From assembly GCA_046160485.1 (NCBI GenBank), contig JBJXGV010000073.1, positions 12,076 through 76,075 on the forward strand: a DNA stretch of 64,000 bases, in the 5' to 3' direction. This stretch comes from a bacterium. Lineage in GTDB: Bacteria; Orphanbacterota; Orphanbacteria; JBJXGV01. Numbering within the stretch: position 1 is the stretch's first letter; each line of letters opens with the position of its first letter. The notes below the pieces were generated by a model. The model was not told the origin of the DNA. It made no database searches and saw only the letters and a program-made list of their open reading frames with translations. The translations under genes were made by a program, and so were the position numbers. Shown here one piece after another: positions 21,649-38,758 of the stretch.

Positions 21649-23784
21649 TTGAGGCAGAGCGATTACTTTTCGCACCCATCGGTCGACGAACAAGAGTACG
21701 AGGCATGGGCGGCGAAAATCGCCAGCGGCGATGTCGTGGGCTCCGGCGTGTTCTACGCGTCGCCGGTCTACCCGTACTTTCTCGGCGCGCTGTTCCGAAT
21801 TTTCGGCGAAGATCTCTTCATTCCGCGGGTCGTGCAGGTTGTCATTGGCGCGGCTCGCGCGCCGATCGCCGCCGCGTTTGCCGCCTTGTCATTCGGGCCC
21901 GCGATCGGTGTTGCGACGGGCGTCATCGTCGCGCTCTACCGGACGACGCTGTTCTACGACGTCTTCCTCCTCAAAGAATCGCTCGCGCTTTTCATTCAGG
22001 ACATCGCGCTCTTCGCGCTCGCGCTTGTGCTGTGGCGCGCACGTCGCCGCACCGCGTCGGCGGCCGGCGAGGTGTCGGTGCGCGCGCTCGTCCTGAGCGG
22101 CTTCCTCATGGGGCTTGCGGCTCTCGCGCGCGAGTATCTCGCGCCGCTGATCGCGTGCGGCGCGGCGATTCTCGCGCTGCACGTACGCGCACTCGAACGC
22201 GGCGCGCCTATGAGCGTGCCGGCGGAGAGGGCTACCTCCGGCCTCGCGAGTTGGCGCTCGCCGGCGCGCGCGGCCGCGCTCTTCGCCGCTGGCGCGGCGA
22301 TCGCGCTCTTTCCGGTCGCCATCCGCAACCTTGTCGTCGGCGGCGAATTCGTCCTCCTGTCGGCGCAAGGCGGGCAGAATCTCTATCTCGGCAACAGCCT
22401 CGCGAACCACACGGGGCTCGTGACGTTTCCGGCAAACGTCCGCTCTGACCCGATGACGCTCGAGCAGGATTTTCGCGCACTCGCGTCGCATCGCGTTGGG
22501 CGCGCGCTCGGCCCGACCGAGGCGTCGAACTACTGGCTGCGAGAGTCGCTGCGCGAGATGGGCTCTAATCCCACGCACGCGATCACGCTTCTCGCACGCA
22601 AGGCGCTTTTGTCGATCAGCGCTTTCGAGGTGCCCAACGTACTTTCCATCGGCTACTTCTCGCGCATCTCGCATTCGCTCGCGTGGAATCCTGTTCGCTT
22701 CGGCCTTCTGTTTCCACTCGCGGCGCTCGGCATTGCGGCGGCGCTTCGCGATCGCGAGAGGCGTTCGAGCGCGGCGCCCGCCCTCGCGGCGCTTGCCGTG
22801 GTCTTCTTCGCACTCGTCGCGTTTTACGTCTCCGATCGATACCGTCTGCCGGCTGTGATGCCGCTGGCGATGTTCGCTGCGATCGGCGCCGCGTCGATGT
22901 GGCGCGTCGTCGTCGCGGATCTCGCACGCGCGCCGCGACGAATCGGACGCGCCGCGATCTCCTGCGCCATCGTTGTCGCGTTCGCCGCTCTTTCGAGACT
23001 GCCGCTTCTCCCGGAGGGAAGCCGCGGCGAAGCGATGCCGCCCGCGAATCTCGGGAACTCGCTCGCGAAGGAGGGGCGATACGAAGAAGCGATCGCCCGC
23101 TACAACGAGGCGTTCGCAATCGAGCCCGACACCGACTTCGCGCTCTACGGAATCGCGGTCGTTTACGGCGATCTCGGCCGCCACGCGGAAGCCGTCGACG
23201 CCTTTCGGAAATACATCGCGAAGAATCCCTACAGCGCGCAGGCGTACTACAGTCTTGGCAACACCTACTTCGAGATGGGACGGCCGGACACGGCGCTCAT
23301 GGCGTTCGAAGCCGCGGTGCGGCTCGAACCGTATTACGCGGAAGCGCATTTCAACATGGGCGCCGTACGCCACGGCCTCGGTGAGCTTGGCGGCGCAATC
23401 GATGCGTACGAGGCGGCGACGCGCGCGGCCCCCAATCTTTGGCGTGCGTGGAATAACCTGGGAGTTGCGCTGCTTGCCGTTGGGCGGCGCGAGGAGGGCG
23501 TCGCGGCGTTGGAGCGAGCACTCGCCGACACCGGGTACGTCGAGCCGCGAATGAATCTTGCGGATTGTGTACTGCGCGACGACGCCGCGCGCGCGTCCGA
23601 GCTTTATGGCTGGGTGCTTGCGCGCGAGAAAAATACCGACGCGTTGCTCGGCCTTGCGCGTGCTCGAGCGAGCCTCGGCGATGCCGCCGCCGCGCGAATG
23701 CACCTCGAACTCTTCTTGCGCGTCGCTCCGCCCGACGATGCGCGCCGCGCCGGGGCCGAGGATCTCCTTCGAACGCTCGGCTAG
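21649..23784 (+). CDS. GT-C glycosyltransferase family 39 (PMT/ArnT-like) membrane protein with C-terminal TPR repeats
   Basis: About 450 aa of multi-TM sequence with the PMT_2-like YPYFLGALF motif are followed by TPR repeats (AIEPDTDFALYGIAVVYGDLGRHAEAVDAFRKYIAKNPYSAQAYYSLGNTYF...). The ORF as tracked begins at TTG, and a hydrophobic in-frame stretch upstream suggests the true start may be non-canonical. Confidence 0.65.
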   Translation: MRQSDYFSHPSVDEQEYEAWAAKIASGDVVGSGVFYASPVYPYFLGALFRIFGEDLFIPRVVQVVIGAARAPIAAAFAALSFGPAIGVATGVIVALYRTTLFYDVFLLKESLALFIQDIALFALALVLWRARRRTASAAGEVSVRALVLSGFLMGLAALAREYLAPLIACGAAILALHVRALERGAPMSVPAERATSGLASWRSPARAAALFAAGAAIALFPVAIRNLVVGGEFVLLSAQGGQNLYLGNSLANHTGLVTFPANVRSDPMTLEQDFRALASHRVGRALGPTEASNYWLRESLREMGSNPTHAITLLARKALLSISAFEVPNVLSIGYFSRISHSLAWNPVRFGLLFPLAALGIAAALRDRERRSSAAPALAALAVVFFALVAFYVSDRYRLPAVMPLAMFAAIGAASMWRVVVADLARAPRRIGRAAISCAIVVAFAALSRLPLLPEGSRGEAMPPANLGNSLAKEGRYEEAIARYNEAFAIEPDTDFALYGIAVVYGDLGRHAEAVDAFRKYIAKNPYSAQAYYSLGNTYFEMGRPDTALMAFEAAVRLEPYYAEAHFNMGAVRHGLGELGGAIDAYEAATRAAPNLWRAWNNLGVALLAVGRREEGVAALERALADTGYVEPRMNLADCVLRDDAARASELYGWVLAREKNTDALLGLARARASLGDAAAARMHLELFLRVAPPDDARRAGAEDLLRTLG

Positions 23785-26222
23785 CGCGACGCGCCGGCCG
23801 CGCCCGGCGCGAGAAACGCCAACCGTTGGCGTACAGCGTCGACGCCGGGTGAGAGCGCGAGCGCTTCGCGGTAGGCCGCCACCGCGTCATCGCGTCGGCC
23901 GCGGGCCTCGAGCGCGAGTCCGCGCGCGAAGTGAAGCTCCGCGTAGTGCGGGTACTTCGCCCGCGCGCGCGCGATGATCGATTCCGCGTCATCGAGGCGG
24001 CCCGCTTGAATCTCGATGAGTGCACGGCGAATCAACGCCTCGATCGCGTCGGGCGAGCGCGCGAGCACCGCGTCGTAAGTACGCGCCGCTTCGGCGTAGT
24101 CGCCCGCCGACTCGAATGCAGCCGCGCGCTGCGCCGCGGCGAAGCGTGCGTTGCGCGCGCCGATAACGATCGCGGAGCGCTCATCCGGGAAGACATCGCC
24201 CGCATCGCCGAGAAGCGCGGGATCAAAGATTTCCGAGTAGGGGAGCGCGATCGCGCTCGGCGGCAGCGCGCCGGAGGCCGGCGCGTCGAGTTCAACGCGA
24301 AACAATCGAAAGTACGAGTCTTGATAGACAGGCGTGAAGCGCGTCAATTGTTCGGGATGAAAGTGGAAAAGATACGCGGCGCACGATGTCGAGACGCGCA
24401 TCCGATCCGCCATATAGCGGTACGATTCCTTCGTGGTGTCGAGAAGCAGGTTCGCCTGATAGAGGAAGTACCGCGCGTTCCATTCCGCGCAGAGATTCCA
24501 CATCTCCTCCTCGGTGCCGTAGAGGGCAGCTCGCATGCGCCGTTCCTTTGCGCGCAGAGTGCTCGACTCGAACATCGAGTGAAGTGGAACCGGGTGCTCC
24601 GTGTCGGTGAGCACCATCGGGCCCGTCGGAAACCAGGTGAGAATCGCGTCGCGTTCCGGGATCTGCGATCGGACCCATGCAGCAAGCCGCGGATTCTCTC
24701 CCGGGTTCGTGACGGCCTCCGCGGGTCCCGTCCCAAAGCTCGACTCGACCCAGCGGCGCCACGGATTCTGATCTTGAAAGGCGCGCAGATACGCGATCTC
24801 GCAGTTTCCGAGTAGAGCCAGCGCGAGAAACGCGAAGCGTCGATGCCGCGGAGCCACGCTCTCCACCACGGCGGGTACGAGAATCGCGGCGAAAAAGACG
24901 AGAAAAACGATCATCCGCTCGACAAGAAGAAAACTCGCCGCAAAAAACAGCGCGAGGAGGAGCGCGAACACGCGCGGTGTGTCGATCTGGGTGCGCAGGA
25001 GTACGCGAGCGCCCGCGATGAGTGACGCCGGTCCCCACAACAACATCGTCGACAATGACAGCAGCGCGGTCGCTGCGTTCGGCGAGTTGAACGGGCCGAC
25101 CCAAAAGACGCGTGCCGCATCGGAGAGAAGCGCCGGGTTGTCGGGCTTAGCGCCGAGGAAGCGGAGTTTCGCGAGGATGAGCCCGGAGACGTGCGCGTAC
25201 TCGCCCTCGCCGCTTGGGAGAATGCGAGCCGCCGCCATCGCAACTCCGAACGCCGCGCATATCCATGCGGCGGAGACGACTCGCCCCGGACCACTCTTCC
25301 GCCAGAGCGCGAGCATGATCGCGAGCGCGGCAACCAGGATGAACCCTGTCGAGAGCAGGAACTTCTTCGCAAGCAGAACGGGGACCGCGACGCCGGAAAC
25401 GATGAGCACGAGCGATAACACCGTGAGCGTCCAGCGCAGCGCCGAGGCCTCCGCTGGCGTGCGGTCGGATTCGATCGTGGTGGGCGCGAGTCTCCGCGTT
25501 GCGATAAGCGTTGCCCAAAGTACGAGCGCGAATGCGAGCAGGTAAAATCGCGCAAGATGCCAGGTCGCAAGCCCGAGCGCGAGCGTTACGGCGGCGCCAA
25601 CCGCAAGGCCGCGGCTCCTTCGCCCGCCCCTCCACGCTGCGATGAAGAACGCGAACGACGCGAAGAGAAATGGCAGTGTGAAATCCTCGCGGACGAAATT
25701 CCAGATCGTCCTGCTGATCGATGCGGGTGACAGCGCGTAGGCGAGCGCGGCCACGAGCCCCGCTGCTGACGTTCGCCACAACGCGCGTGCGGCGAAGAAC
25801 GCGGCCGCGATCGAAAGACTGGACCACGCCGCGATGAATCCAGCGAGGTAGACGTGAAAAGGCGCGCCGCCGAGAAGCGGACGCAGTGCGCGGTACGAGA
25901 GTCCCGCGGCGTATTCCATCCCCATCGTGAACTCGCGAAGCGGAGCGACGCCTTCGGGCCATTGTGCGTCGCGATCGATTTCTGGGACAGCGACTCCCTG
26001 CGCGATCATTCGCGCGTAGCGATAGTGGAACGCCGACTCCGACCAGAAGATACCCGTGTCGTCTTGCGAAGCGAAGCGAGGGGATTCGAGGAAAGCTCGG
26101 TACTTGTAGGTCGTGCTCGCGAGAATGATCGCGAGGAGCGCGACGATGACGATAGGCCGGAGTTGCTGGTGTGTCGCCGCGCTCGCGCTCGCGGCGGCGT
26201 TGACATGGGGCGGCACCGTCAT
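23781..26222 (-). CDS. Large polytopic membrane protein (GT-C-like / DUF2723-TMTC-like) with C-terminal TPR repeats
   Basis: At 813 aa it has more than 12 predicted TM helices, a DDTGIFWSESAFHYRYARMIA motif region, and C-terminal TPRs (AGDYAEAARTYDAVLARSP...ELHFARGLALEARGRRDDAVAAYREAL). Confidence 0.55.
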   Translation of the reverse strand: MTVPPHVNAAASASAATHQQLRPIVIVALLAIILASTTYKYRAFLESPRFASQDDTGIFWSESAFHYRYARMIAQGVAVPEIDRDAQWPEGVAPLREFTMGMEYAAGLSYRALRPLLGGAPFHVYLAGFIAAWSSLSIAAAFFAARALWRTSAAGLVAALAYALSPASISRTIWNFVREDFTLPFLFASFAFFIAAWRGGRRSRGLAVGAAVTLALGLATWHLARFYLLAFALVLWATLIATRRLAPTTIESDRTPAEASALRWTLTVLSLVLIVSGVAVPVLLAKKFLLSTGFILVAALAIMLALWRKSGPGRVVSAAWICAAFGVAMAAARILPSGEGEYAHVSGLILAKLRFLGAKPDNPALLSDAARVFWVGPFNSPNAATALLSLSTMLLWGPASLIAGARVLLRTQIDTPRVFALLLALFFAASFLLVERMIVFLVFFAAILVPAVVESVAPRHRRFAFLALALLGNCEIAYLRAFQDQNPWRRWVESSFGTGPAEAVTNPGENPRLAAWVRSQIPERDAILTWFPTGPMVLTDTEHPVPLHSMFESSTLRAKERRMRAALYGTEEEMWNLCAEWNARYFLYQANLLLDTTKESYRYMADRMRVSTSCAAYLFHFHPEQLTRFTPVYQDSYFRLFRVELDAPASGALPPSAIALPYSEIFDPALLGDAGDVFPDERSAIVIGARNARFAAAQRAAAFESAGDYAEAARTYDAVLARSPDAIEALIRRALIEIQAGRLDDAESIIARARAKYPHYAELHFARGLALEARGRRDDAVAAYREALALSPGVDAVRQRLAFLAPGAAGASR

Positions 26223-26274
26223 GCGATGCGACTATACACGCTCGGGATGATGCCTTGTCTTCGAAGGGGCGGTG

Positions 26275-29200
26275 TTACTCGAGACCGTAGCGGGCGATCT
26301 TATTCTTCAGACCGCGGCGCGTAAGGCCGAGCGCGGCGGCGGCGCGGCACTTGTTCCCCTTGTGCGTGCGCAGCGCCTCCCGAACCAAGCGAGTCTCGAT
26401 CTCTTCGACGACATCCGCGAGCCGCTTGCCTCGGCCGCCGGAGACAAGGGTCTCGCTCACGGGATTGCCGACGGTTTCGTCGGAGAGGTCGCGCGCATCG
26501 ACGAGGGCGTCGGATGAATTGAGCGCGACCGCTCGTTCGACTTCATTCTCGAGGTCGCGAATGTTGCCAGGCCAATCGTGGCTCTCGATGCACTCCATCG
26601 CTTCGTCGGAGAAACGAATGCCGGACTTCTTCATCTTCGTTTGGAAGGTGTTGAGGAAATGCTCGACGAGCATCGGAATGTCTTCGCGGCGCTCGCGCAG
26701 CGCGGGCAACGCGATCGCGATGACGCGGAGGCGATAGTAGAGGTCCTTCAAGAACTCGCCCTTTTCGACTTGCCCGCGAAGCTCGCGATTGGCCGCGACT
26801 ATGATGCGGCAGTCGACCTTCTTCACTGTCGTCGAGCCGACAGGCTTGATCTCGCGGCGGTCGACAACCCGCAGCAGTCGTTCTTGGAAATTGCGGCTCG
26901 TCTTGTCGATCTCGTCGATGAAGACCGTGCCGCCGTTGGCGATCTCGAAGAGCCCGCGCTTCTCCGTACCCGCACCGGTGAATGCGTTCCGCGCGTGACC
27001 GAAGAGCTCGCTCTCGAGGATTGTCTCGGAGAGATCGGCGCAGTTGATCGTGACGAACGGCCCGTCGCTCCAGCGGCTGATCTCGTACGCAAGAAGCCCC
27101 TTGCCGGTGCCGGTCTCGCCCTGAAGCAGAATCGTCGACGATGCGCCGGCGACCTTCTTCAGCATTTCAAGGATGTCGAGCATCCGGCGACTGCGCGTGA
27201 CCACCGCAGCGAAGGGCGATTCCGCCGGCGCTTCGGTGCTGGCGAGTGCCGCGTCGTCCGACACCAGGAGTCCGCGAAGGATGGACCCCGCCGCAACCAC
27301 GAAATGAAGTTCGAGCCGGCCGAAAGGCAGCCGGTCGTCGCTGGCGCTCCGGTCGACGTACAACAGCCCGGCCCGGCGGCCCGCCTCCATGATTGGAACG
27401 ATGATGTACGAAAGAACGTCCGCTTCGCCGCCGGAGAACTCGCCGTAGGAGATAACGGCCTCGCCATTCTCCAGTCGCTCGCGATGGCGCTCGGCGATCG
27501 AGCGGCAAAGACCACGCGCAGTCGGAAGGGCGACACCGTGGAGTGCCCGGACGCTTAGGCGCATCCCGTCGGACGCGGCGACGAACGCGCGATCCGCGCG
27601 CGCCGACTCGACGACCAGCGCGAGGACACTGGAAAGATCGGCGCCCGTCGCATGCGCGGAACGCCGGAGGTTCAAGAACTCCAAGTCGAGAGACGCTGTG
27701 TTCTGTGCGGTTTCCGTCTCGAGTTGCCGGCGCAGCGCGTCAATCTCGCGCAGCGCGACGTCGTCCGCTACCTGCGCGTTTGCGCGTTCGGCTTCGCGGA
27801 GCAGGCTGAGCGCCTCGAGATTGTTATGAAGCGACATCTCGACGCGGGCGCGTTCGATGAGAACTCCGCCGGCTTCCTGCGCGAGTCCGAGTCCACGGAA
27901 GAGTGCTTCCGCGCGAATGAGGTGGTTGCGGGCATCTGATGCGGAGCACCAGAGGCCTTCGCGGACGCGGCCCGCTTCGCGGAGAGTGCGCGCGAGTTCG
28001 AGCGGCGCGCCGAGCCTTTCGGCGTGGTGAATCGCGCGCGTGAACGCTGAGCGCGCCCGGTTCTTCTCGCCGCGTGTATGGAAAACGATGCCCAGAACCC
28101 GCAACGCAGCGCCCGCGAGTCTCCGGTCCTCGGTTCGCGCGGCCGCGCCGTACGCACGGCGCGCGGTGTCGAACGCGTCGTCGAGTTGATTGCGATGAAT
28201 GAGAATTTCGGCGACGCGGCGCTGGACGTCGGCATCGTGATCGGTCGGGCCCGACGAGATACTGCGTGAAATGTCGAGCGCCTCCCGGAATCGCAGCATC
28301 GCTCCGTCAAAATCGCCGCGCGCGGCAGCCAGCGCACCCGCTTCCTCGACCGCGGCGGCGGACTCGCGGCGCGCGCCACCCTCGCGGGTCGATGCGATGG
28401 CTTCACGAACGAGTTGCTCTGCTCGGTAGAACGAGCGACACCACCGCTCGATTCGAGCAAGCCCGAGCGATGCCCGCGCGACGCCGATCGCATCGCCAAT
28501 GTTGCGACTCATTTTGAGGCTGCGGTCGAAGAGCGACCTGGCGCTTCCCCAGTCGCCGGTATGCGAGTAGACGATCCCCAGGTTCAAGCAACGACGCGCC
28601 GTCTGGGAGTAGTTGCCGAGCGATTCGTCGATCTCGGCCGCACGGCGCAAGCACGAGATCGCGGACTGCCACTGCCCGAGGTTGTTATACACGACGCCCA
28701 GGCTGTTGAGCGCTTTCGCGGCACCTGCTTGATCTTCCGTCCGGCGGTATGTCGCCAACCCATCTTGGAAGAAGTGCTCGGCATCGCGTAGCCGACCCTC
28801 GCGAAGATACACAGCACCCACGTTCAGTTGGAGAAACGCGACTTCGGATTGCTCGTTCGTGTTCTTGAGTTTCTCGAGCGCGAGAAGCCCATGCTCGAGC
28901 GCATCAGTATGCTCGCCGCGCTTGCGGTGGATCTGCGCGAGAAACGCGTGCGCGTGACCAGCGGCGAGAGGATCAACGCTCGACGCGGCGCGAGTCTCCG
29001 ACAGCGCGCGCGAGCCCGAAGAGAGTGCCCCGTCGAGGTCGCCGAGTCCGGCACGGGCGCGGCCCGTCTTGAGTTCGATGCCGGCACGGCGTGCCGGCTC
29101 GATTGCGGGCCAATCGGGATGTTCAAGGATGCTGGTGAACTGAGCAAGCGCAAGCGCGTAGCTCTCCGACGTGAGGAACAGATCCCCAACGCGTTCTAGG

Positions 29201-29292
29201 GAATCAATTGTCCCTTCTTCCCCAATTTGCCGGGGAATGTCGGCTACTCGCTGGACCTCGTCATGAGGCCCGTGATGATTGGGTCTTTCCAC
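26275..29292 (-). CDS. Sigma-54-dependent transcriptional activator (bEBP) with N-terminal TPR array, GAF domain, AAA+ sigma-54 interaction domain and Fis-type HTH
   Basis: It has Walker A GETGTGKG, the GAFTGA-type loop region ESELFGHARNAFTGA, the arginine finger region DLYYRLRVIAIALPALRERREDIP, and a C-terminal HTH (AAAALGLTRRGLKNKIARYGL). The N-terminal 450 aa are TPR-like. Confidence 0.85.
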   Translation of the reverse strand: MERPNHHGPHDEVQRVADIPRQIGEEGTIDSLERVGDLFLTSESYALALAQFTSILEHPDWPAIEPARRAGIELKTGRARAGLGDLDGALSSGSRALSETRAASSVDPLAAGHAHAFLAQIHRKRGEHTDALEHGLLALEKLKNTNEQSEVAFLQLNVGAVYLREGRLRDAEHFFQDGLATYRRTEDQAGAAKALNSLGVVYNNLGQWQSAISCLRRAAEIDESLGNYSQTARRCLNLGIVYSHTGDWGSARSLFDRSLKMSRNIGDAIGVARASLGLARIERWCRSFYRAEQLVREAIASTREGGARRESAAAVEEAGALAAARGDFDGAMLRFREALDISRSISSGPTDHDADVQRRVAEILIHRNQLDDAFDTARRAYGAAARTEDRRLAGAALRVLGIVFHTRGEKNRARSAFTRAIHHAERLGAPLELARTLREAGRVREGLWCSASDARNHLIRAEALFRGLGLAQEAGGVLIERARVEMSLHNNLEALSLLREAERANAQVADDVALREIDALRRQLETETAQNTASLDLEFLNLRRSAHATGADLSSVLALVVESARADRAFVAASDGMRLSVRALHGVALPTARGLCRSIAERHRERLENGEAVISYGEFSGGEADVLSYIIVPIMEAGRRAGLLYVDRSASDDRLPFGRLELHFVVAAGSILRGLLVSDDAALASTEAPAESPFAAVVTRSRRMLDILEMLKKVAGASSTILLQGETGTGKGLLAYEISRWSDGPFVTINCADLSETILESELFGHARNAFTGAGTEKRGLFEIANGGTVFIDEIDKTSRNFQERLLRVVDRREIKPVGSTTVKKVDCRIIVAANRELRGQVEKGEFLKDLYYRLRVIAIALPALRERREDIPMLVEHFLNTFQTKMKKSGIRFSDEAMECIESHDWPGNIRDLENEVERAVALNSSDALVDARDLSDETVGNPVSETLVSGGRGKRLADVVEEIETRLVREALRTHKGNKCRAAAALGLTRRGLKNKIARYGLE

Positions 29293-29393
29293 GTTCTCCG
29301 CGCTCCCGCTCCGCGGGCATGAGTAACGGACCCGTTTCGATTTTTTGCGCTACGCCCTGTTTCCCGCTCCAAGTCACCCAACACTAACGTGCG

Positions 29394-29666
29394 TTAGAAG
29401 CTGATTCTCCTGAGAAAGTCCTTGAGTAGGAACGACTCGATCCAACGCAGCGCACTGATCTCGGCCGCGTAGCGTTCCATCCCGGAGAGCTTCGACGCGC
29501 GGCTCTCTTTCGGGTTCTCAACAATGGCGTGTCCTCGCAAGTCGAGCCCAGTGGGATCGACGTCTCCGCCAGTCGGCGGCGCAGAGAACGCACTGTGAGT
29601 ACCAGCCCCGATAAAGAGCGATGTGATGGTGATGATGAGGAGCAGGGAGATGATCTTGCGGATCAT
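29394..29666 (-). CDS. Small secreted hypothetical protein (90 aa) in a lower-GC patch
   Basis: An N-terminal signal peptide (MIRKIISLLLIITITSLFIGAG) is present, with a strong RBS GGGAGGAGAA. It lies downstream of a consensus sigma-70 promoter. Confidence 0.5.
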   Translation of the reverse strand: MIRKIISLLLIITITSLFIGAGTHSAFSAPPTGGDVDPTGLDLRGHAIVENPKESRASKLSGMERYAAEISALRWIESFLLKDFLRRISF

Positions 29667-29734
29667 GATTTCTCCTCCCAGCTGAGTGGGGATGAATCAC
29701 TTGGGAAGTCATAGAACTTCCCAAAACGTGGGCG

Positions 29735-29764: not shown

Positions 29765-30012
29765 GGAAGCGTTTACGCAACGGTCTTGTGTTTGGCCCAT
29801 TCTGCTAATCGGCATTCAATTCCTTGTACTGAAGCATCTAACGGATTCGCGAACGCCACGGCCCAGTCGGAAATCGAACCGGGGTGGATCGTGTTCCCCG
29901 ATCCACCCCGGCCCCGTCAGGAATCGCGCATGCGTCCCGACGTGCAAACTTGTAACGAGCAGCTATAGGTGTCCTTTCTGTGCCTTCCGGCTTATCCCAA
30001 GCATGATAGTCG

Positions 30013-30195
30013 TTAAGCCTTAAGCGCGACTGGCTTCCTTGCCGGTACGACGCTCGGGATTTCGCGGAAAGGGAAGTCCTCAGGCATGTCGTCCACAGCC
30101 TCTTCCCAACCCCGGTTGACTCCGCAGAAACGGGCGACGACCACGGCAAGGATCACGTAGGCCAAGACGAGCGCGAATGCTACAACGTACATCAT
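30013..30195 (-). CDS. Small single-pass membrane protein (60 aa), paralogous to 38769..38990
   Basis: The sequence MMYVVAFALVLAYVILAVVVARFCGVNRGWEEAVDDMPEDF aligns with the 73-aa protein at 38769..38990 (VIALVYLAIALVVARMCSINSRWEDLVDRIP). A strong RBS GGAGGGAGG precedes it. Confidence 0.5.
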   Translation of the reverse strand: MMYVVAFALVLAYVILAVVVARFCGVNRGWEEAVDDMPEDFPFREIPSVVPARKPVALKA

Positions 30196-30244
30196 GTAAG
30201 TTCACCTCCCTCCAATTGGTAGCCCGTTCTATGCCATGTGGTAT

Positions 30245-30260
30245 AGCACTACGCGTGCCA
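30245..30260 (-). promoter_or_regulatory. Sigma-54 (-24/-12) promoter upstream of the small membrane protein gene
   Basis: The minus strand reads TTGGCACGCGTAGTGCTATACC. This is a perfect -24 TGGCACG with a correctly spaced GC at -12. It sits about 40-50 nt upstream of the ATG and within 1 kb of the sigma-54 activator gene. Confidence 0.5.
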
Positions 30261-30484: not shown

Positions 30485-31720
30485 CTACGTGCGCGGGTCT
30501 GCTGGTGGTCGGGGAGCGGACGCTGTCTTGAAGCGGACGGCGACCCGATCGACTTGATCCTGAATTAGCCGAACCAAGCGAGCGAGCATTTCAGCGTGGC
30601 CGAGCGACACGGAATGTCCGATCGGCAGATTGACCACGCCAGCAGCCACGGCGCGGGCGACCGGAAAGAGGCCGCGTGCGGCCGCCGAGCCAGGGGCCAT
30701 GAACTTCCGTGCGAGTGGAAGATCGGGGACCGCCGGGGAGAAGTACGCGCCGGTCTCAACGCCTTCGGACTCCAGTACCGATCGCAACGCGTCGCGAGAG
30801 AGGCCGAACTCTTCGGCGTGAACGCGAATCGAAAAATCACGGAACACGGGGAACGTGCCAGGCAGCGACGACTGAAAACCAATTCCGGGGATGTCGTTCA
30901 GAGCGGCTCGATACGTTCTCGCGAGCGCGCCGCGTCGTTCGATCTCCGTTTCGAGACTTTGGAGCGATCTGTCGGCCAGCGCCGCCGAGATCTCAGGCTG
31001 ACGTGCCGACGCGCCACGGCCCGTCCAGTCTCCTGCCACGCTGCGCCCATAGTTTCGCGCGGCCTGAAGTTCGGTCGCAAGACGCGCGTCGGCGGTGGTA
31101 ACCGCCCCACCCTCGCCGCCGCAGACCAGCTTGGACGGAGTAAAAGAGAAGACCTCAGCACTGCCGAGGGCGCCGACGTTTCGATCCGCGGCGCGTGCTC
31201 CGACCGCGTGTGCCGCGTCGAATATCAATCGCAGTCGGCGGCGCGCGGCGATCGACTCGAGGGCTGCAGCCGCCGCAGGGAAACCGGACGTGTGCACCGC
31301 AAGAATCGCAGACGTTCGCGGTCCGACGGCCGCCTCTGTCGCGACGGGATCGAGATTCCACGAATCCGCGTCAATGTCGACGGGGCGCGGGGTCAGACCG
31401 GCCGCCATGATGGCCTGGAGAACAGGCGGGAACACGTAGGCGGGTACGATGACCTCGCCCTCGAGTCGGAGTGCCTGAAGTAAGAGTGTCATCGCCGAGA
31501 GGCCGGAGGAGAATGCGATCGCGTAGGCCGCGCCCGTCTGTGTTGCAAGCGCGCGTTCGAATTGGCGCACGCGTGTTCCCTTCGTGAACTCACCCGACGC
31601 GAGGATTTGAAGAATCTCCGGCGCGAGCCGCTCAGAGTCGACGGACACCGGCCCGTAAAGCGGGAGGCCTGGCGCGAACGCGGGTTCACCGCCGAGAATC
31701 GCGAGTCGTTCAACAGACAT
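30485..31720 (-). CDS. DegT/DnrJ/EryC1/StrS-family PLP-dependent sugar aminotransferase
   Basis: It shows fold-type I aminotransferase features and the DegT-type PLP-Lys context FSFTPSKLVCGGEGG. Confidence 0.85.
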   Translation of the reverse strand: MSVERLAILGGEPAFAPGLPLYGPVSVDSERLAPEILQILASGEFTKGTRVRQFERALATQTGAAYAIAFSSGLSAMTLLLQALRLEGEVIVPAYVFPPVLQAIMAAGLTPRPVDIDADSWNLDPVATEAAVGPRTSAILAVHTSGFPAAAAALESIAARRRLRLIFDAAHAVGARAADRNVGALGSAEVFSFTPSKLVCGGEGGAVTTADARLATELQAARNYGRSVAGDWTGRGASARQPEISAALADRSLQSLETEIERRGALARTYRAALNDIPGIGFQSSLPGTFPVFRDFSIRVHAEEFGLSRDALRSVLESEGVETGAYFSPAVPDLPLARKFMAPGSAAARGLFPVARAVAAGVVNLPIGHSVSLGHAEMLARLVRLIQDQVDRVAVRFKTASAPRPPADPRT

Positions 31721-31729
31721 GACGTCATT

Positions 31730-34700
31730 ATGCCACGCGCGGAGTGTGAACCGTCTCTACGTTGTGCCTCAAATTCGCCGCGTGGTAGACTGCCTTTCGT
31801 GACTGAACCATCGCGAGCACGGGCGGACGACGGCCGCGTCCCAACTTGGCTCCTCGCCGCGTTTTTTGTCTCCGGTGGCGCCGGCCTCGTCTATGAAATC
31901 GTGTGGGCGAAGGTCCTCTCGTACACGCTGGGCAATTCCCTCTTCGCGATCTCGACCGTCATCTCCGCTTTCTTCGGCGGTCTTGCACTCGGCGCGTTCG
32001 TGCTCGGTCCGCCCCTGGCGCGCGCGGGTGCGAACATTCGCCGTTATGCCATCCTCGAGGTCGGAGTTGCGGTGCTCGGCATCCTTTCGGTGCCCGCGCT
32101 GCGAGCGATTGACCCGCTTTTCATCGAAATCCATCGCACGCTCGGCCCCAGTTTCCCTGTGTTTCTCGCGATCCGATTCGTCGTGGTCTCGGCGCTTCTG
32201 CTCGTTCCGACGGCGCTCATGGGCGCCACGCTTCCGCTGCTCGTCGCTCACGCCGAAGGCCGGCGCTTCGGCGGCGCGCTCTCCCGTCTCTATGCGGCGA
32301 ACACGTTTGGCGCGGTGTGCGGAACGCTTCTCGCCGCGCTCGTGCTCATTCCGGCGCTAGGGCTCGTCGGGACCGCGCTTTTCGCGGCGGCATGCAATCT
32401 TGCCGCCGGCGCGCTCGCGTGGATGCGACGCTCGGAGGACCGATCCGTACCCGCCGCCGCCGACCGCGTCTCGGCAGCGTCGGTCGAGCCTGATCCCGCG
32501 CCTCTTGCGCCGACCACCGATCCATCGCGGGTATACCTTCTCGCGCTGATTGCCATTTCCGGGTTCGCGGCACTCCTTCTCGAAGTCAGTTGGACACGCG
32601 TGTTGACGCTCGTAATCGGCTCTTCCGTGATTTCCTTCGCGATGGTGCTCGCGTTCTATCTCCTCGGCATCGCTGGGGGCAGCGCGCTCATCGCATCCCG
32701 GCTTAGCCGTCTCGCGCGCCCGCTCGTCGTCTTCGCGTATCTCGAAATCGCGTTGGCGCTCCTCGTGCTCTCGCACCTCTACCTGTTCCCGCAGCTTCCC
32801 GGGGCGTTTCTGAAGATCATGCTCGACCCGCGGATGAACTTGCCGCTCTACCTTGGGGCTCAGGCGCTACTCATCGCCGCGCTGATCGTCCCGCCGTGTT
32901 TGTTTCTCGGCGCGCTGTTTCCACTCTCGGCGCGACTCCTTTTCACGAACGACGCGGGGCGCGCGACGGGGTTGACGTACGCGGTGAACACGTTCGGCAC
33001 GATTCTCGGTTCTCTCGTCACCGGATTCGTGCTCATCCCGGCGATCGGATCGCGACGCACGATCATCGCGGGCGCGCTTATTTCGCTCGTTGTGGGCCTC
33101 GCGGCGCTTGTGCGATCGAGTTTGGTCTCGTCGCGCCGCGTGATTGTCGGCGCAGGGTCTGTGGCGATCGCGTTGATTCTCATCTTCGCGGCGCCGGAGT
33201 GGGATCTTCGAGTGCTGACGGCCGGCATCTTTCGTCCGGCCGCGGCTGGCGCGATCGCCGGGATAACGGACCCGCGGCGCTCGTCGCAAGACCGCCTCAC
33301 CGAAGCCTTCGCCGTCGACTCGGTTGTCTTCTACAAGGAGGGCGTCAACGCGACGGTCTCGCTCAATCGCACGACGGCAACAGGCGATCTCTTCCTCAAA
33401 ATCGGAGGGAAGACGGACGCCTCATCCGGCGATATCGAGACGCAGCTCCTCTCCGGTCACCTGCCGATGCTTTTCGCGCCGGATAGCGCCAAGGTGATGG
33501 TGATCGGCCAAGGATCGGGCATGACGCTGGCCGGAGTGCTGAAGTATCCGGTGGTGTCGGCTGAGATTGTCGAGATCGAAGATGCAGTGCTGGAAGCGTC
33601 GCGCGCGTTCCATGCAGCCGGTCAAGACCCGCTCAATGATCCGCGGACGCGAATCACCCTCGAGGACGGCCGCACGCGGCTCGCGGTCGAGGAAGGATTG
33701 TTCGACGTCGTTATTTCAGAGCCGTCGAATCCGTGGCTCGCCGGCAACAACAACTTGTTCACGACCGACTTCTACAAGCTCGTGCGATCGCGGCTCGCAC
33801 CTCACGGCGTTTTCGGTCAGTGGATTCAGCTGTACGAGATTTCCCCGGAGACGCTTTCGTCTCTCTTGACTGCGTTTCACTCCGTGTTCTCGAATACCTA
33901 CGCCTTTCTGACGTTCAACGCCGACCTCATCCTAATCGCCGTCCCGGCCGACGTCCCATTTCGCTTCGACCGGCTTCATTCGCCGGAGGTTGTCGCGGAA
34001 CTCGCGCGCATCGGGTTGCGCCCTCCCGAACTGATCCTCTCGTACTACTCCTGTGAACTGGGGGAACTTCCCGCGTCGCTCGTGTCGGGCATCGCGAACA
34101 CCGACAACAACGCGCGCGTCGAGTACCGCGCACCGATCGATCTCTTCAAGGTGGGACGTCAGGATCTGGCCGGCGGGTCGACAGCGTCACTCGCCGAGAT
34201 GATTCCGCGCTCGCGTGAAATCCCATTCGCGAGAACTCTCGATCTTCGGGACGTCGCGATATGGCGCGCTGAGGGCCTCGCGCGGCGGAACCGCTTCGGA
34301 TGGGCCCGCGAGGCCGCCGAGTGGCTGAACGATCTCGGGCGCGTTAGCACCGCGGATTCGCTGAACTACGCAATTTCGCTTCTCGAGGTTGAGGCTCGCT
34401 CCAAGGCGATCACGACGGACGTGGTGCGGATGGCACGCGCCGGCCGGGTCGCTGACGCGGAGCGGGCCCTCCGCGAATTGTTGGCGCGAACCCCGGGCGA
34501 TCCCGTGCTTCTCTTCAACTTGGGATTGTTCTTGATGCAGTCGGACCGCGACATGGAGGCGGATTCGCTCTTTGCGATCGTCGCAGACGTGGGGATCGGC
34601 TCGCCCGTCGTGCGTTCGCGAAACAATCGCGGCATCATCGCGATGCGGCGCGGAGACCCGGCGAGCGCCCTCGCCTTCTTCCGCGATGCGAGAGCCGTGC

Positions 34701-34867
34701 GGCCGGACCTGCCGGAGTCGTACTTCTACGAGGCCAAGGTGCTCAACGGCATCGGCCAGCCGTCAGACGCGCTCATCGTCGTGGATCAGGGACTCGTCGT
34801 ATGCCCGAATGATCCTACGTTGATCGCCGCGCGGGCGGAAATCGCCGCCGGAGCGCCCCGCCAGTAG
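31730..34867 (+). CDS. Fused MFS-like polytopic membrane domain / spermidine-synthase-like (PABS) domain / C-terminal TPR protein
   Basis: At least 12 TM helices are followed by a PABS-like AdoMet fold (VMVIGQGSGMTLAGVL...VISEPSNPW...FYKLVRSRLAPHGVF) and then TPRs. The start is uncertain: the ATG at 31730 is an internal Met of the tracked ORF, and a GTG lies at about 31799. Confidence 0.65.
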   Translation: MPRAECEPSLRCASNSPRGRLPFVTEPSRARADDGRVPTWLLAAFFVSGGAGLVYEIVWAKVLSYTLGNSLFAISTVISAFFGGLALGAFVLGPPLARAGANIRRYAILEVGVAVLGILSVPALRAIDPLFIEIHRTLGPSFPVFLAIRFVVVSALLLVPTALMGATLPLLVAHAEGRRFGGALSRLYAANTFGAVCGTLLAALVLIPALGLVGTALFAAACNLAAGALAWMRRSEDRSVPAAADRVSAASVEPDPAPLAPTTDPSRVYLLALIAISGFAALLLEVSWTRVLTLVIGSSVISFAMVLAFYLLGIAGGSALIASRLSRLARPLVVFAYLEIALALLVLSHLYLFPQLPGAFLKIMLDPRMNLPLYLGAQALLIAALIVPPCLFLGALFPLSARLLFTNDAGRATGLTYAVNTFGTILGSLVTGFVLIPAIGSRRTIIAGALISLVVGLAALVRSSLVSSRRVIVGAGSVAIALILIFAAPEWDLRVLTAGIFRPAAAGAIAGITDPRRSSQDRLTEAFAVDSVVFYKEGVNATVSLNRTTATGDLFLKIGGKTDASSGDIETQLLSGHLPMLFAPDSAKVMVIGQGSGMTLAGVLKYPVVSAEIVEIEDAVLEASRAFHAAGQDPLNDPRTRITLEDGRTRLAVEEGLFDVVISEPSNPWLAGNNNLFTTDFYKLVRSRLAPHGVFGQWIQLYEISPETLSSLLTAFHSVFSNTYAFLTFNADLILIAVPADVPFRFDRLHSPEVVAELARIGLRPPELILSYYSCELGELPASLVSGIANTDNNARVEYRAPIDLFKVGRQDLAGGSTASLAEMIPRSREIPFARTLDLRDVAIWRAEGLARRNRFGWAREAAEWLNDLGRVSTADSLNYAISLLEVEARSKAITTDVVRMARAGRVADAERALRELLARTPGDPVLLFNLGLFLMQSDRDMEADSLFAIVADVGIGSPVVRSRNNRGIIAMRRGDPASALAFFRDARAVRPDLPESYFYEAKVLNGIGQPSDALIVVDQGLVVCPNDPTLIAARAEIAAGAPRQ

Positions 34868-34931
34868 CCAAGCCGGCTTCCGCACGACTGGCATTCCGCG
34901 CGCAAAACACTGCCGAATAATATTTTGTGGG

Positions 34932-35480
34932 CTAGCCTGAGCGAAGTTGCGTCAATATATCCGAGATATTGGATGCTGCCTGATCTTTGGCGGAGACACT
35001 CGGCGATGCGGTCGGCCATTGTATGCCAAGTGTTGGATCACTCCAGAGAATTCCAAACTCGTCGGCCGGATCGTACAGGTCCGTGCACTTGTACACGACC
35101 TCGGCGATCTCGCTCGTGACGCAGAAGCCGTGGGCGAAGCCTGGCGGGATGTAGACGCCCCGGAAGTTCTCGGCGCTCAGCACGACACTCGTCCACTTCA
35201 GAAATGTCGGCGAGCCTCGCCGGATGTCGACCGCGACATCGAAAATCTCGCCTCGAATGACCCGTACGAGTTTGCCTTGCGGACGGGTGCGCTGCGCGTG
35301 GAGGCCCCGCAGAGTCCCGAGGCTGGAGAGGGAGTGATTGTCTTGAACGAAGCGCACATCGATGCCGCCCTCCCGGAACTTCCGCTCGTGATACGTCTCG
35401 AGGAAAAAGCCGCGCGCGTCGCGGTGCACTTGGGGCTCGATGACGACGACGCCCGCGATTTCGGTCGAGACGAACCTCAT
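34932..35480 (-). CDS. rfbC: dTDP-4-dehydrorhamnose 3,5-epimerase
   Basis: The internal start [16 protein letters not shown] is used, and the cupin motifs RGLHAQ and GFAHGF are present. The gene overlaps the rfbA stop by 4 nt. Confidence 0.85.
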
Positions 35481-36355
35481 GGTGCGGAATCCTCGTCGAC
35501 GATTCTGCGCAGGTAGGCCCCGTATTCGTTCTTGTTCATCGTGTCCGCCACGCGAAGAACTTGCGCTGCGTCGATGTACCCCATGTTGTAAGCGACCTCC
35601 TCGACACACGCGACCTTTAGGCCCTGACGTTCCTCGATCGCTTGAATGAAGTTCGACGCTTTCAAGAGGGCCTCGTGCGTGCCGGTATCGAGCCACGCGA
35701 TTCCTCGCCCGAGCCGTTCGACGTTGAGTTCGCCCGCGCGAAGGTACGCGAGATTCACGTCGGTGATCTCGAGTTCTCCGCGCGGCGACGGCTTCAGTGC
35801 CGCGGAGATATCGAGCACGCGATTGTCGAAGAAGTAGAGGCCGGTGACGGCGTAGAACGAGCGCGGGTGCGCGGGCTTTTCTTCGAGGCCGATCGCGCGC
35901 CCCTCCGCGTCGAACTCCACAACCCCGTATCGTTCCGGATCCCGTACGCGGTACCCGAATACGGTCGCACCCGTAACTCGGGCCGCCGCCCGCTGGAGAT
36001 ATTCGGGAAATCCGTGTCCGTAGAAAACGTTGTCGCCCAACGCGAGCGCAACGCGGTCGTCTCCGACAAAGTCCCGGCCAATGATGAACGCTTGCGCGAG
36101 ACCCTCCGGCCGGGGTTGGGCCGCATAGGCGATTCGAACTCCGATACGTTCTCCGTCGCCGAAGAGCCGGCGGAAACTCTCCTGGTCCTCAGGCGTCGTG
36201 ATGATCAAGATGTCGCGGATTCCGGCAAGCATCAACGTCGAGAGCGGGTAGTAAATCATTGGCTTGTCGTAGATCGGAACGAGCTGTTTGCTGACCGCTT
36301 GCGTCAGCGGAAAAAGCCGCGTGCCCGAACCGCCAGCGAGAATGATCCCTTTCAT
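35477..36355 (-). CDS. rfbA: Glucose-1-phosphate thymidylyltransferase
   Basis: The internal start [18 protein letters not shown] gives the canonical G-loop. RfbA-like sequence continues through the C-terminus. Confidence 0.9.
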
Positions 36356-36517
36356 CGGACTCCGAACTCCGTGTTGGCCTCGTGTATTCGGGGCACGGTC
36401 AATGGACGAAGAGCGCAGATCATATATCAAGGTCGCGCGACGCGGGAGTCTCTATCGTCCGCGCGGATCGCGCGTGTGTAGCGCCATCGATCGGGGCGCC
36501 CGTATAATCGCCGGATT

Positions 36518-38758
36518 GTGAAGCAGCGAAAAGCCAAGGCGAAAACGAGCACCGAGACGGGGCGCCGAAGCGCGCCCGCGACTGGCGTCTCTTCCACTGC
36601 CATCGTCGCTGGCTGCGTCGCGATCGCGTTGCTCGTGCGGCTCGTCTATCTCGGAGAGATCCGGGTTCTCCCATTCTTCGAGTTTCCGATCATCGATGGC
36701 GCCGAGTACCTCGCGTGGGCGCGGCGGATTCTCGCGGGCGAGGCGATCTGGCGCGAGGTCCCGATCCACGGGCCCGTCTATCCGTACTTCCTAGCGGCCG
36801 CGCTCGCTCTCTCCGGGAAGAGCATCACGTTTGCCATTTGCATGCAGTTTCTTCTCGGCGCCGCCTCCGTCGTCTTCGTGTACCGCATCGCGCGCCGTGC
36901 GTTCGGCCAGGGCCCAGCGGTCTTGAGCGCGGCGATCGCCGCGGTCTATCCGGCGTTCCTCTATTTCGAAGGACAGCTGCTCGCACCGTCCGTTGTGCTC
37001 CTTCTCAATCTCGCGCTGCTCGACAGGCTCGGTGCTTTGCCGGTCAAGCCGACGCCGACGGCGCTCATCGTCCCTGGGATCTTGCTGGGGCTATCGATAG
37101 CAACGCACCCAAGCGCGCTCGTGCTTGTCCCCGTGATCGCGTGGTGGTTGGTCCGGCGCGCGTCCGGCGCGTCACCGAGCGCGGAACCGCGAGCGCGTCG
37201 CGGCGCGCGCGCAATTCCGGCGCTGGTCTTCGTCGCCGCGACGGTGTGCGTCATCGGTCCGATTGCCCTTCGTAACGCTTCACTCGGAGGAGGCCTGACG
37301 CTTCAGCGAAACGTCGGCAAGAACCTCTACATCGGTTTGGGACCGACCGCCGATGGCACGGCGAACATCGCACCCGGCGCACAGTGGGACCGGCTTCGAC
37401 GGCAGGCGTGGGACGCGGGCGCGCGATCGTCTGCGGAGGAGTCGCGCTACTTTGTTTCGGAGACCGTCGGATTTGCGTTGCGAAACCCCATCCGCGTCGT
37501 CGGGACCGTTATCAAGAAGGCGATGTTCTTCGTCAGCGGAATTCATGTCGACGCGAGCCAAGACTTTCGATACTTCCAGACGCACACTCGTGTGTTGAGT
37601 TTTCCTCTGCCAGGCGCCGCTGTCTTGATCCCGCTCGCGTTGCTCGGAATGCTCCGGTACTTCCGGCGCGCGCCGCTCCTCGTGCTCTACGTCTGCGGCT
37701 ATCTCGCGGCGTCGTTCACCTTCGCGTTCGCTACGCGCTACGCGATCCCGGCGCACCCGGTGTTCCTCGTCTTTGCCGCGGCGGCGCTCACTGATCTGGC
37801 GCGCGCCGCCCGCGCGCGCAAAGTGGAGTCGCGCGAGATCGCACTTCTCTGCGCGTTCTTATTGGTCGCGAATCTCGATCCCTTCGGATTGCGGAAGCGG
37901 CAACTCATTCACGTCCCCGGCTTCATCGCGAAGATTCTCGTCGATACCGGACGGCTCGACGATGGATTGCGCGCGTACGAGCAAGCGGCGCGGGAGTACC
38001 CGACCGATCCCGACATCCGCAACGGGTGGGGCACGGCGCTCGATCGCGCGGGGAGGCGCGACGAGGCTCGCGCGCAGTACGAAGCCGCGTTGGCGGCAGC
38101 CCCCGAGTTGTTCGAAGCGCGCTTCAATCTCGCCGCGCACGCCCACGAGGCGCGATCTTTCGCGGACGCGCTTGCCGGATATGGCGCGGCGATCGAAGCC
38201 GCGCCTTGGCGCGCCGATGCGCGACTCAACCTCGGCGCCGTCTACGCGGAGATGGAGAGCCTCGACCACGCGGCCGCGCAGTTCGACACCGCGCTTCAGC
38301 TCGCGCCCGGTTTCGACGAGGCGCTCGCGAATCTCGCGATGATCGAATCGCGCCGCAAAGATCCTGCCGCCGCGGCCGCGATTCTCAAACGGCTCGCCGC
38401 GAAAGAGCCCACGCCCGAGCGGTTCGTGAGCCTCGGCATCGCGCTCACGGAGTCGCAGGACTACCTCGGCGCGCAAGACATCTTCCGTCAGGCGCTCGCG
38501 CTCGATGACGCTTATCTCCCCGCGCTATTTCATCTCGGAATGAATCTGGCTGGGTTCCAACGTTTCGAAGAGGCGATCGCGATCTGGGAGAGGATCCTCG
38601 CGAAGGAGCCGGCAAACGAGGTCGCGCGCACGGCGATCGCGGAGGCGAACGCACGCATTGCAGCACGCGCCGCCGCGGCGAGCACACCGGCCCAGACTCC
38701 GGATGAAAAAGAAGAAGGCGGCGCGCCCTCGAAGGACACGCCGCCCGGTACTCCTTAG
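36518..38758 (+). CDS. GT-C glycosyltransferase family 39 (PMT/ArnT-like) membrane protein with C-terminal TPR repeats, paralogous to 21649..23784
   Basis: The same architecture is seen, and the motif PVYPYFLAAALAL matches PVYPYFLGALFRI in the first copy. It has C-terminal TPRs and a proline/glutamate-rich tail. Confidence 0.7.
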   Translation: MKQRKAKAKTSTETGRRSAPATGVSSTAIVAGCVAIALLVRLVYLGEIRVLPFFEFPIIDGAEYLAWARRILAGEAIWREVPIHGPVYPYFLAAALALSGKSITFAICMQFLLGAASVVFVYRIARRAFGQGPAVLSAAIAAVYPAFLYFEGQLLAPSVVLLLNLALLDRLGALPVKPTPTALIVPGILLGLSIATHPSALVLVPVIAWWLVRRASGASPSAEPRARRGARAIPALVFVAATVCVIGPIALRNASLGGGLTLQRNVGKNLYIGLGPTADGTANIAPGAQWDRLRRQAWDAGARSSAEESRYFVSETVGFALRNPIRVVGTVIKKAMFFVSGIHVDASQDFRYFQTHTRVLSFPLPGAAVLIPLALLGMLRYFRRAPLLVLYVCGYLAASFTFAFATRYAIPAHPVFLVFAAAALTDLARAARARKVESREIALLCAFLLVANLDPFGLRKRQLIHVPGFIAKILVDTGRLDDGLRAYEQAAREYPTDPDIRNGWGTALDRAGRRDEARAQYEAALAAAPELFEARFNLAAHAHEARSFADALAGYGAAIEAAPWRADARLNLGAVYAEMESLDHAAAQFDTALQLAPGFDEALANLAMIESRRKDPAAAAAILKRLAAKEPTPERFVSLGIALTESQDYLGAQDIFRQALALDDAYLPALFHLGMNLAGFQRFEEAIAIWERILAKEPANEVARTAIAEANARIAARAAAASTPAQTPDEKEEGGAPSKDTPPGTP

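Follow-up and report, generated by a model that had tools for sequence, protein, structure and literature searches.

Within a 64,000-nucleotide stretch (hereafter, the window) of contig JBJXGV010000073.1 from an uncultivated bacterium of the Orphanbacterota (assembly GCA_046160485.1), positions 21,649 to 38,758 encode three large proteins, GTC1, GTC2 and GTC3, in which a GT-C-type membrane domain is followed by C-terminal tetratricopeptide repeats (TPRs). On balance, we favour a reading in which these are three stand-alone GT-C glycosyltransferases facing the periplasm, embedded in a clade-specific gene neighbourhood that is not a mobile island and probably does not constitute one pathway. The most interesting part of the region, and a lead for glycobiologists, is GTC2, which resembles the eukaryotic DPY19 enzymes and carries TPRs in addition.

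Three GT-C/TPR membrane proteins

GTC2 scores 48.8 bits against the Pfam family Dpy19 (PF10034; gathering threshold 27.2) in a partial match (residues 59-242 on model positions 33-234 of 653), in addition to TPR matches. Its AlphaFold model (pLDDT 83.7, pTM 0.86) retrieved the Caenorhabditis elegans enzyme CeDPY19 as the top Protein Data Bank (PDB) match in Foldseek (7zlh; E 1.8e-14, TM-score 0.75 over 703 columns), followed by STT3, AglB and PglB (E 1e-13 to 1e-6), with ArnT matching weakly; a sequence search of the PDB with residues 1-660 matched nothing. Its helices, with K/R enriched at the N-terminus and in every other loop, are compatible with 13 transmembrane (TM) segments and TPRs on the outside, and they include a large loop (residues 335-392) resembling external loop (EL) 5. 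Beyond the membrane part, the model contains an alpha/beta domain (~485-660) similar to the 'luminal dome' of CeDPY19 and then the TPRs (680-805). As modelled, GTC2 is a DPY19/STT3-class GT-C.

The family alignment shows an acidic residue directly after TM1 (E62; Asp in one member) and the EL2 motif R171-TIWNF-VRE179, in which R171 is nearly invariant and E179 is invariant. The pattern across the family is Rx5-6[LVI][RK]E, and one member (P0015) carries the exact Rx6LRE, which is the DPY19-specific EL2 motif, its STT3 counterpart being Rx6DNE (PMC6801728). Also retained are H222, R371, W374, R436 at the TM11/12 turn, and E552. The catalytic and phosphate-binding residues of CeDPY19 are Glu71, Arg211 and Arg471 (PMC10154233), for which E62, R171/R178 and R436, respectively, are candidate counterparts by position. 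GTC2 thus has in common with the Trp C-mannosyltransferases DPY-19 of C. elegans and human DPY19L1-4 the Pfam match and closest structure, ~13 TM segments, the C-terminal alpha/beta dome, the large EL5-like loop, the acidic residue after TM1, the EL2 motif and the Arg at the TM11/12 turn. In contrast to these enzymes, which we take to be CAZy family GT98, it is bacterial, only 13-14% identical and extended by a C-terminal TPR array. The oligosaccharyltransferases STT3, PglB and AglB, the second-best structural matches, share with GTC2 the plan of 13 TM segments plus a periplasmic domain; however, the EL2 motif of GTC2 is of the DPY19 type (..RE) rather than Rx6DNE, and GTC2 has no STT3 Pfam match, whereas one member of its family has a precomputed one.

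The GTC2-like family is real but small: out of 1.84 billion clusters (50% identity), 786 have representatives that match at E<=1e-3. In metagenome-assembled genomes of Eisenbacteria, Gemmatimonadota, Glassbacteria, Firestonebacteria and Zixibacteria, the matches reach the TPR region of the query, whereas those in Verrucomicrobiota and Kiritimatiellia stop short of it. C-mannosylation has been described as confined to metazoa and alveolates (PMC6801728), and the literature on this modification that we searched (PMC6801728, PMC12990085) makes no mention of bacterial DPY19 homologues. It is conceivable, although we regard it as a long shot, that GTC2 represents a bacterial branch of DPY19 that glycosylates periplasmic proteins, possibly by C-glycosylation of Trp, with the TPRs choosing the substrates, and that its neighbours are TMTC-like O-glycosyltransferases. 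If so, this bacterium would carry, next to each other, equivalents of two domain-specific mannosylation systems of eukaryotes. The DPY19 enzymes C-mannosylate the Trp of WxxW/C sequons; no candidate substrate of GTC2 bearing a WxxW motif was identified.

GTC3 matches the Pfam family PMT_2 (PF13231) at 47.9 bits (cut-off 26.1) together with TPR families, whereas GTC1 has strong TPR matches and a sub-threshold PMT_2 score of 20.4 bits; the TPR matches of the two proteins reach 98 bits. They are 26% identical over 634 amino acids (E 4e-30), an alignment that covers both the membrane and the TPR parts, and, judging from their sequences, they are true paralogues. An Asp directly after TM1 (D60; IDGAEY / VDEQEY) is invariant in an alignment of 8 GTC1/GTC3 sequences and nearly invariant in one of 21, and further invariant residues of the orthologue alignment are located in a large loop beyond residue 255. 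The GTC3 model (pLDDT 86.1) consists of an N-terminal helical bundle (26-451) and eight TPR pairs (466-722). Its K/R-rich segments alternate (N-terminus, 218-232, 382-385 and 433-437), and the large conserved loop has four more helices behind it; a positive-inside reading of the model helices would fit 11 TM segments with the N-terminus inside and the TPRs outside.

The preliminary description of this region had called these two proteins GT39/PMT-like paralogues. The paralogy stands, but the label GT39 is unsupported, because neither protein matches Pfam PMT (PF02366) or MIR at E<=0.01, the family found is PMT_2, and some relatives of GTC3 carry the JGI name 'ArnT-like'. DUF1736 (PF08409) likewise gave no match at this threshold, and a sequence search of the PDB with a profile of the GTC1/GTC3 N-terminal domain found no solved structure. 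Comparison of the sequences instead places GTC1 and GTC3 in the PMT_2/ArnT class of GT-C enzymes with the architecture of TMTC and TfpW. With the cadherin O-mannosyltransferases TMTC1-4 and the Pseudomonas aeruginosa pilin D-Araf transferase TfpW, they share an ArnT-like GT-C domain of ~11 TM segments, an Asp in the first external loop, the large conserved loop, the four helices and the C-terminal TPRs. Unlike TMTC, they lack a DUF1736 match, and unlike tfpW, their genes have no pilin gene nearby. With ArnT, the undecaprenyl-phosphate-L-Ara4N:lipid A transferase (presumably CAZy GT83), they have in common the PMT_2-type domain and a nearby gene for a DegT-family aminotransferase, but ArnT has no TPRs, and the window encodes none of ArnA, C, D, E and F.

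The architecture previously assigned to all three proteins of 711-813 amino acids, a GT-C-type membrane domain with C-terminal TPRs, is supported. Their mutual relatedness holds for GTC1 and GTC3 only: similarity of GTC2 to these two is confined to the TPRs, and profile comparison of the GTC1/GTC3 and GTC2 families with hhalign gave a probability of 6.7%, that is, no detectable sequence homology.

GT-C enzymes with TPRs are of an already known kind, as are the DegT, RmlA/RmlC, sigma-54 activator and fused MFS/spermidine synthase families encoded next to them. The known examples of such GT-C/TPR fusions are the animal enzymes TMTC1-4 and one pilin transferase of Pseudomonas, and DPY19 enzymes are known from eukaryotes only; in the literature searched, we found no description of a bacterial DPY19-class enzyme fused to TPRs beside TMTC-like paralogues. 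A bacterial enzyme of this class next to two TMTC-like enzymes could provide tractable prokaryotic models for acceptor choice and a lead on the origin of the eukaryotic C- and O-mannosylation machinery.

Sugar donors and acceptors

The three transferases and the features around them are listed below by position in the window.

21649..23784, plus strand: GTC1, PMT_2/ArnT-class GT-C domain and ~7 TPRs, paralogue of GTC3, 711-aa open reading frame (ORF), MFN0152576.1
23781..26222, minus strand: GTC2, DPY19/STT3-class GT-C as modelled, 813 aa, with ~13 TM segments (residues 22-480), dome (~485-660) and TPRs (680-805)
26275..29292, minus strand: sigma-54 enhancer-binding protein (EBP; the activator), with N-terminal TPR array, GAF, AAA+ and HTH_8
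29394..29666, minus strand: sm90, 90 aa, signal peptide, DPTGLD motif, Trp in the C-terminal helix
29735..29764, minus strand: sigma-70-type promoter TTGACA-18-TATAAT, 5' of sm90 (possibly of sm90-EBP-GTC2)
29881..29909, minus strand: G+C-rich hairpin 3' of sm60, probable terminator between sm60 and sm90
30013..30195, minus strand: sm60, 60 aa, single-pass membrane protein, VARFCxVNRGWEEAVD
30245..30260, minus strand: sigma-54 promoter TGGCACGCGTAGTGCT, ~50 nt 5' of sm60
30485..31720, minus strand: DegT/DnrJ/EryC1-family sugar aminotransferase (DegT)
31799..34867 (ORF from 31562), plus strand: fused MFS-like/spermidine-synthase-like (SpdSyn)/TPR protein (NF037959)
34932..35483, minus strand: rmlC, dTDP-4-dehydrorhamnose 3,5-epimerase
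35477..36355, minus strand: rmlA, glucose-1-phosphate thymidylyltransferase, its stop overlapping the rmlC start
36518..38758, plus strand: GTC3, PMT_2/ArnT-class GT-C domain (residues 26-451) and ~8 TPRs (466-722), 746 aa
38769..38990, minus strand: sm73, paralogue of sm60, last gene of a conserved minus-strand run

In the mechanism that we propose, the active site in each polytopic membrane domain would face the periplasm, and each enzyme would most likely take its sugar from a polyprenyl-phosphate carrier made elsewhere and pass it to an acceptor in the envelope, which the C-terminal TPRs of that enzyme would hold in place. The TPRs of 11-TM TMTCs are lumenal (PMC7801869), and PhoA fusions placed the TPR domain of TfpW in the periplasm (bioRxiv 10.1101/2020.04.19.049825); the predicted topology is in line with both and with that of CeDPY19 (PMC10154233). 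DegT and, in the closest relatives, also RmlA and RmlC may feed an amino- or deoxy-sugar into the donor pool, with the lipid-loading steps presumably encoded elsewhere. None of the scanned ORFs of the 64 kb encodes a GT2 polyprenyl-phosphate glycosyltransferase, GtrA or a small-MDR flippase; known extracytoplasmic GT-C systems usually encode a lipid-sugar synthase and a flippase nearby (PMC11127046).

By analogy, proteins are more likely acceptors than glycans or lipids, because the characterised look-alikes (TMTC1-4, TfpW, DPY19 and STT3/PglB) all glycosylate proteins (PMC7801869, 10.1101/2020.04.19.049825, PMC10154233). Alternatively, the three enzymes might modify glycans or lipids, such as lipopolysaccharide/lipid A or side branches of O-antigen or exopolysaccharide, with the TPRs binding polysaccharide or docking to export machinery, a possibility that we consider less probable but worth keeping in view. 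The organism is a diderm, as judged from its genes for a porin and an outer-membrane beta-barrel protein, and the ArnT-like names of GTC3 relatives and the pairing of DegT with GT-C enzymes, which recalls ArnB/ArnT, are both consistent with such acceptors. So are the position of a TPR-less GTC2 homologue beside Wzz, Wzy_C and GT2 genes in another lineage and the Bac_transf and exosortase genes found, twice each, among the neighbours of distant GTC2-like homologues. However, the rest of an Arn pathway is missing from the window, the block contains no polysaccharide export genes, and DegT (PF01041, 263 bits; candidate pyridoxal-phosphate lysine in SFTPSK) scores 150 bits against the ArnB model, far from the cut-off of 631 bits. 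Its nearest model is DesI-like (dTDP-sugar 4-aminotransferase), also far below the equivalog cut-off.

The gene neighbourhood and its conservation

All genes named in the preliminary description were recovered by ORF listing and Pfam/NCBIfam scans at the positions given there, and the identities of DegT, RmlA/RmlC (rfbA/rfbC) and the TPR-containing sigma-54 activator held up in domain and equivalog scans. The same description saw in them an island forming a coherent block. The G+C content is flat (0.62-0.68 across the window), Pfam scans of the window detected no integrase, no tRNA flanks the block, and the flanking genes are of the housekeeping type (CBS, cystathionine gamma-lyase (CGL), RtcB and archease upstream; FtsH, TilS, FolP and CdaA downstream), so that a horizontally acquired island is unsupported. 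The sole compositional outliers of the block are rmlA and rmlC (G+C 0.60).

Co-conservation was compared across relatives of the clade with 50-85% identity, all of which retain the block. Three of these (L001, L003 and L005) share the order cytochrome, HEAT/PPIase, RtcB, archease, CBS, CGL, GTC1, GTC2, EBP, sm90, sm60, DegT, MFS/SpdSyn, GTC3. Two others, L032 (85% identical, GCA_031388265.1) and L033, cover the block from EBP or GTC2 to GTC3 and continue with sm73, two family-less proteins and a ParA/BcsQ-like ATPase, L033 extending to CdaA, FolP and FtsH. Block proteins are 50-63% identical to those of the relatives, and housekeeping neighbours 69-76%. Because the housekeeping flanks are equally syntenic, synteny within the clade does not discriminate joint function.

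Outside the clade, the linkage is lost. Judged by GT-C identity and co-conservation, the preliminary description is partly upheld. The 18-20 GTC2-like loci of other phyla lack all other block genes, except that a GTC1/GTC3-like gene neighbours the GTC2-like gene in L006/L007 and in the verrucomicrobial locus L022. Among 92 genes surveyed next to distant GTC2-like genes, no Pfam family was enriched and no partner recurred, and the neighbours of three distant MFS/SpdSyn loci are unrelated to the block. A 716-aa TPR protein encoded next to a distant GTC2 homologue was considered as a GTC1-like protein and rejected, not being GTC1-like. In L006 (1-10435), the TPR-less DPY19-like gene is flanked by genes for two membrane proteins with TPRs, one of them GTC1-like, as well as Wzz, Wzy_C and GT2, a polysaccharide-type context unlike that of the window.

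RmlA and RmlC pass their equivalog models (TIGR01207, 483 vs 361 bits; TIGR01221, 236 vs 156 bits), but of the genomes compared, only that of the window and its 85%-identical relative have these genes, inserted between the MFS/SpdSyn gene and GTC3, and four more distant relatives lack them; on this distribution, rmlAC appears to be a recent insertion. With neither rmlB nor rmlD in the 64-kb window, the set of dTDP-L-rhamnose genes is locally incomplete, and the link to dTDP-sugars that had been drawn from rfbA and rfbC is unsupported.

The fused MFS/SpdSyn/TPR protein belongs to NF037959 (115.8 bits, cut-off 40) and bears the same family name at NCBI. The fusion is thus as previously described, but its length is not: NCBI calls a protein of 1022 rather than 1100 amino acids, starting at GTG 31799 in the ORF that opens at 31562. 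In the spermidine synthase SpeE, GGGDG is the motif for decarboxylated S-adenosylmethionine and D..D the putrescine/catalytic pair. Compared with Thermotoga maritima SpeE (1inl), the SpdSyn-like domain (33500-33760, plus strand) reads GQGSG for GGGDG and EPSNP for DSTDP, so that the D..D pair becomes E..N. These alterations render canonical aminopropyl transfer doubtful and suggest that the NF037959 family, or at least the window member, is not a canonical aminopropyltransferase. The protein has ~12 helices and an N-terminus rich in K/R, which makes a cytoplasmic location of its SpdSyn and TPR parts probable. NF037959 relatives give >1,500 matches, many with C-terminal TPRs; no characterised 'fused MFS/spermidine synthase' member was found in the literature searched.

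The activator comprises TPR, GAF, Sigma54_activat and HTH_8 domains (Pfam/NCBIfam), and domain scans detected no receiver domain. Its gene directly precedes GTC2, on the same strand and with a 52-bp gap, and it had been counted as part of the same block as the transferases. We scanned the 64 kb for sigma-54 sites (score out of 11, threshold >=9) and found three sites at >=9/11, of which one precedes sm60 and is the sole site recognised in the block; even at a lower threshold, no site was found 5' of any transferase gene. The best match of the window, TGGCACTTCGATTGCC (43767-43782, minus strand), is located 5' of an ORF for a 261-aa protein (42942-43727, minus strand), and this gene with its promoter is conserved in L032 and L033; the predicted product is cytoplasmic and matches no family. 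From its promoter sequence, the 261-aa gene is likely a second target of the activator, 13 kb away. Thus, the evident targets of the activator are small or family-less proteins rather than the GT-C genes, and it would switch on sm60 and probably the 261-aa protein. Transcription from the sigma-70 promoter could still run through sm90 and the activator gene into GTC2.

These observations bear on an unlikely alternative, namely, that the block is one integrated, sigma-54-regulated system for protein O-glycosylation or exopolymer synthesis, in which the sugar would come from DegT and RmlA/RmlC, be exported or modified by the MFS/SpdSyn protein, and be used by the three GT-C enzymes acting together on shared substrates. 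The gene order kept in the clade, the divergent adjacency of DegT and the MFS/SpdSyn gene, the closeness of the activator to GTC2, and the proximity of GTC1-like and GTC2-like genes in L006 (with Wzz, Wzy_C and GT2) and L022 would all fit such a system. However, CBS, CGL, RtcB, FtsH, FolP and CdaA are equally syntenic, the linkage is missing outside the clade, the genes occupy both strands in at least 5 transcription units, rmlAC arrived recently, and the window lacks rmlB/D, a GT2 lipid-sugar synthase and a flippase; moreover, the sigma-54 promoter precedes no transferase gene. The sugar genes and the activator are therefore best described as neighbours, not demonstrated partners, and the label 'glycosylation island' should not spread.

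Several points nevertheless weigh against stand-alone enzymes with protein acceptors. TPRs bind polysaccharides in BcsC, PgaA and AlgK, so that their presence does not establish protein acceptors, and the residue equivalence between GTC2 and DPY19 is positional. Furthermore, two lineages unrelated to each other (L006 and L022) have GTC1/GTC3-like and GTC2-like genes in proximity, and the survival of the order GTC1-GTC2-EBP-sm90-sm60-DegT-MFS/SpdSyn-GTC3 in every clade relative compared, despite divergence of the proteins to 50-60% identity, is compatible with joint function.

A peculiarity of GTC1 concerns its start. The annotated ORF (NCBI MFN0152576.1) begins at a TTG beyond TM1, whereas the orthologues have this helix. 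TM1 (TLAILFALALIPRIALLAEL) is present in frame at 21565-21648, where it adjoins the TAG that ends the cystathionine gamma-lyase gene, and neither ATG nor GTG nor TTG precedes it; AGGAGG (21563-21568) is located 8 nt 5' of an ACG codon (21577). The anomaly could reflect the use of a non-canonical start codon, loss of the start or a mistake in the assembly. A reading in which at least one of the three proteins is a scaffold without catalysis (GTC1, for instance, being a decaying paralogue that lacks TM1) and the TPR modules serve envelope-protein assembly only would accord with the missing canonical start and the sub-threshold PMT_2 score but is very improbable, considering the in-frame TM1 behind AGGAGG, the EL1 Asp and other residues invariant across the GTC1/GTC3 alignment, a G+C content at third codon positions of 0.79, typical of expressed genes in the window, and full-length orthologues in L001, L003 and L005, with ATG followed by TM1.

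Small conserved genes and other loci

Alignment with three relatives shows that the 1.2 kb separating the activator from DegT contain two conserved small genes, sm60 and sm90, together with their signals. The sigma-54 promoter of sm60 (TGGCAC-N5-GTGCT) retains the -24 GG and the -12 GC in L001, L003 and L005 and is followed by a Shine-Dalgarno sequence. The tail VARFCxVNRGWEEAVD is almost invariant in relatives, and a metagenome scan with sm60 found members of its own clade only. A heptamer, TGGGTAC (30476-30470, minus strand), just downstream of DegT and ~200 nt 5' of the sm60 promoter, is invariant in all four aligned relatives (alignment A1) and could be an activator-binding site.

The sm90 promoter is a perfect sigma-70-type match, and its hexamers are largely conserved in relatives, with TTGAC invariant. 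In the encoded secreted protein, DPTGLD just after the signal peptide and one Trp in a C-terminal amphipathic helix are invariant. The gene is located immediately upstream of the activator and GTC2, and sm90 might, speculatively, be an acceptor or signal for the adjacent enzymes. The example of TfpW also suggested a type IV pilin, a reading of sm90 that was rejected because it has no pilin-type leader.

The protein encoded by sm60 is 43% identical to sm73 over 35 amino acids (E 5e-10), with the shared motif VAR[FM]CxxNxxWE[ED]xVDx[MI]P; neither matched a Pfam or NCBIfam family. The conserved, operon-like minus-strand run that ends with sm73 consists of the genes for the ParA/BcsQ-like ATPase (40669-41526) and the family-less proteins (39852-40679 and 39018-39842), followed by sm73.

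Between the 261-aa gene and cdaA, the stretch 44062-44375 (plus strand) contains a conserved sigma-54-like site, CGGCACACCGATTGCC, which L032 and L033 have as well, and after it ~200 nt of strongly conserved non-coding sequence. The stretch folds better on the plus strand (-74.9 vs -55.8 kcal/mol), where GAAGCCGGGA and TCCCGGCTTC form a conserved helix. Although Rfam contains no match to it, the stretch is a candidate for a small or structured RNA, the three sequences being too few for covariation. Near the block, a PIG-L-family gene (41847-42578, plus strand), followed by a gene for an SH3_3 protein (42575-42895), was considered as a lipid-sugar deacetylase and rejected, because it passes the equivalog cut-off for the bacillithiol biosynthesis deacetylase BshB1 (232 vs 182.5 bits). 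It points to a bacillithiol-type thiol in the lineage, unrelated to the GT-C genes.

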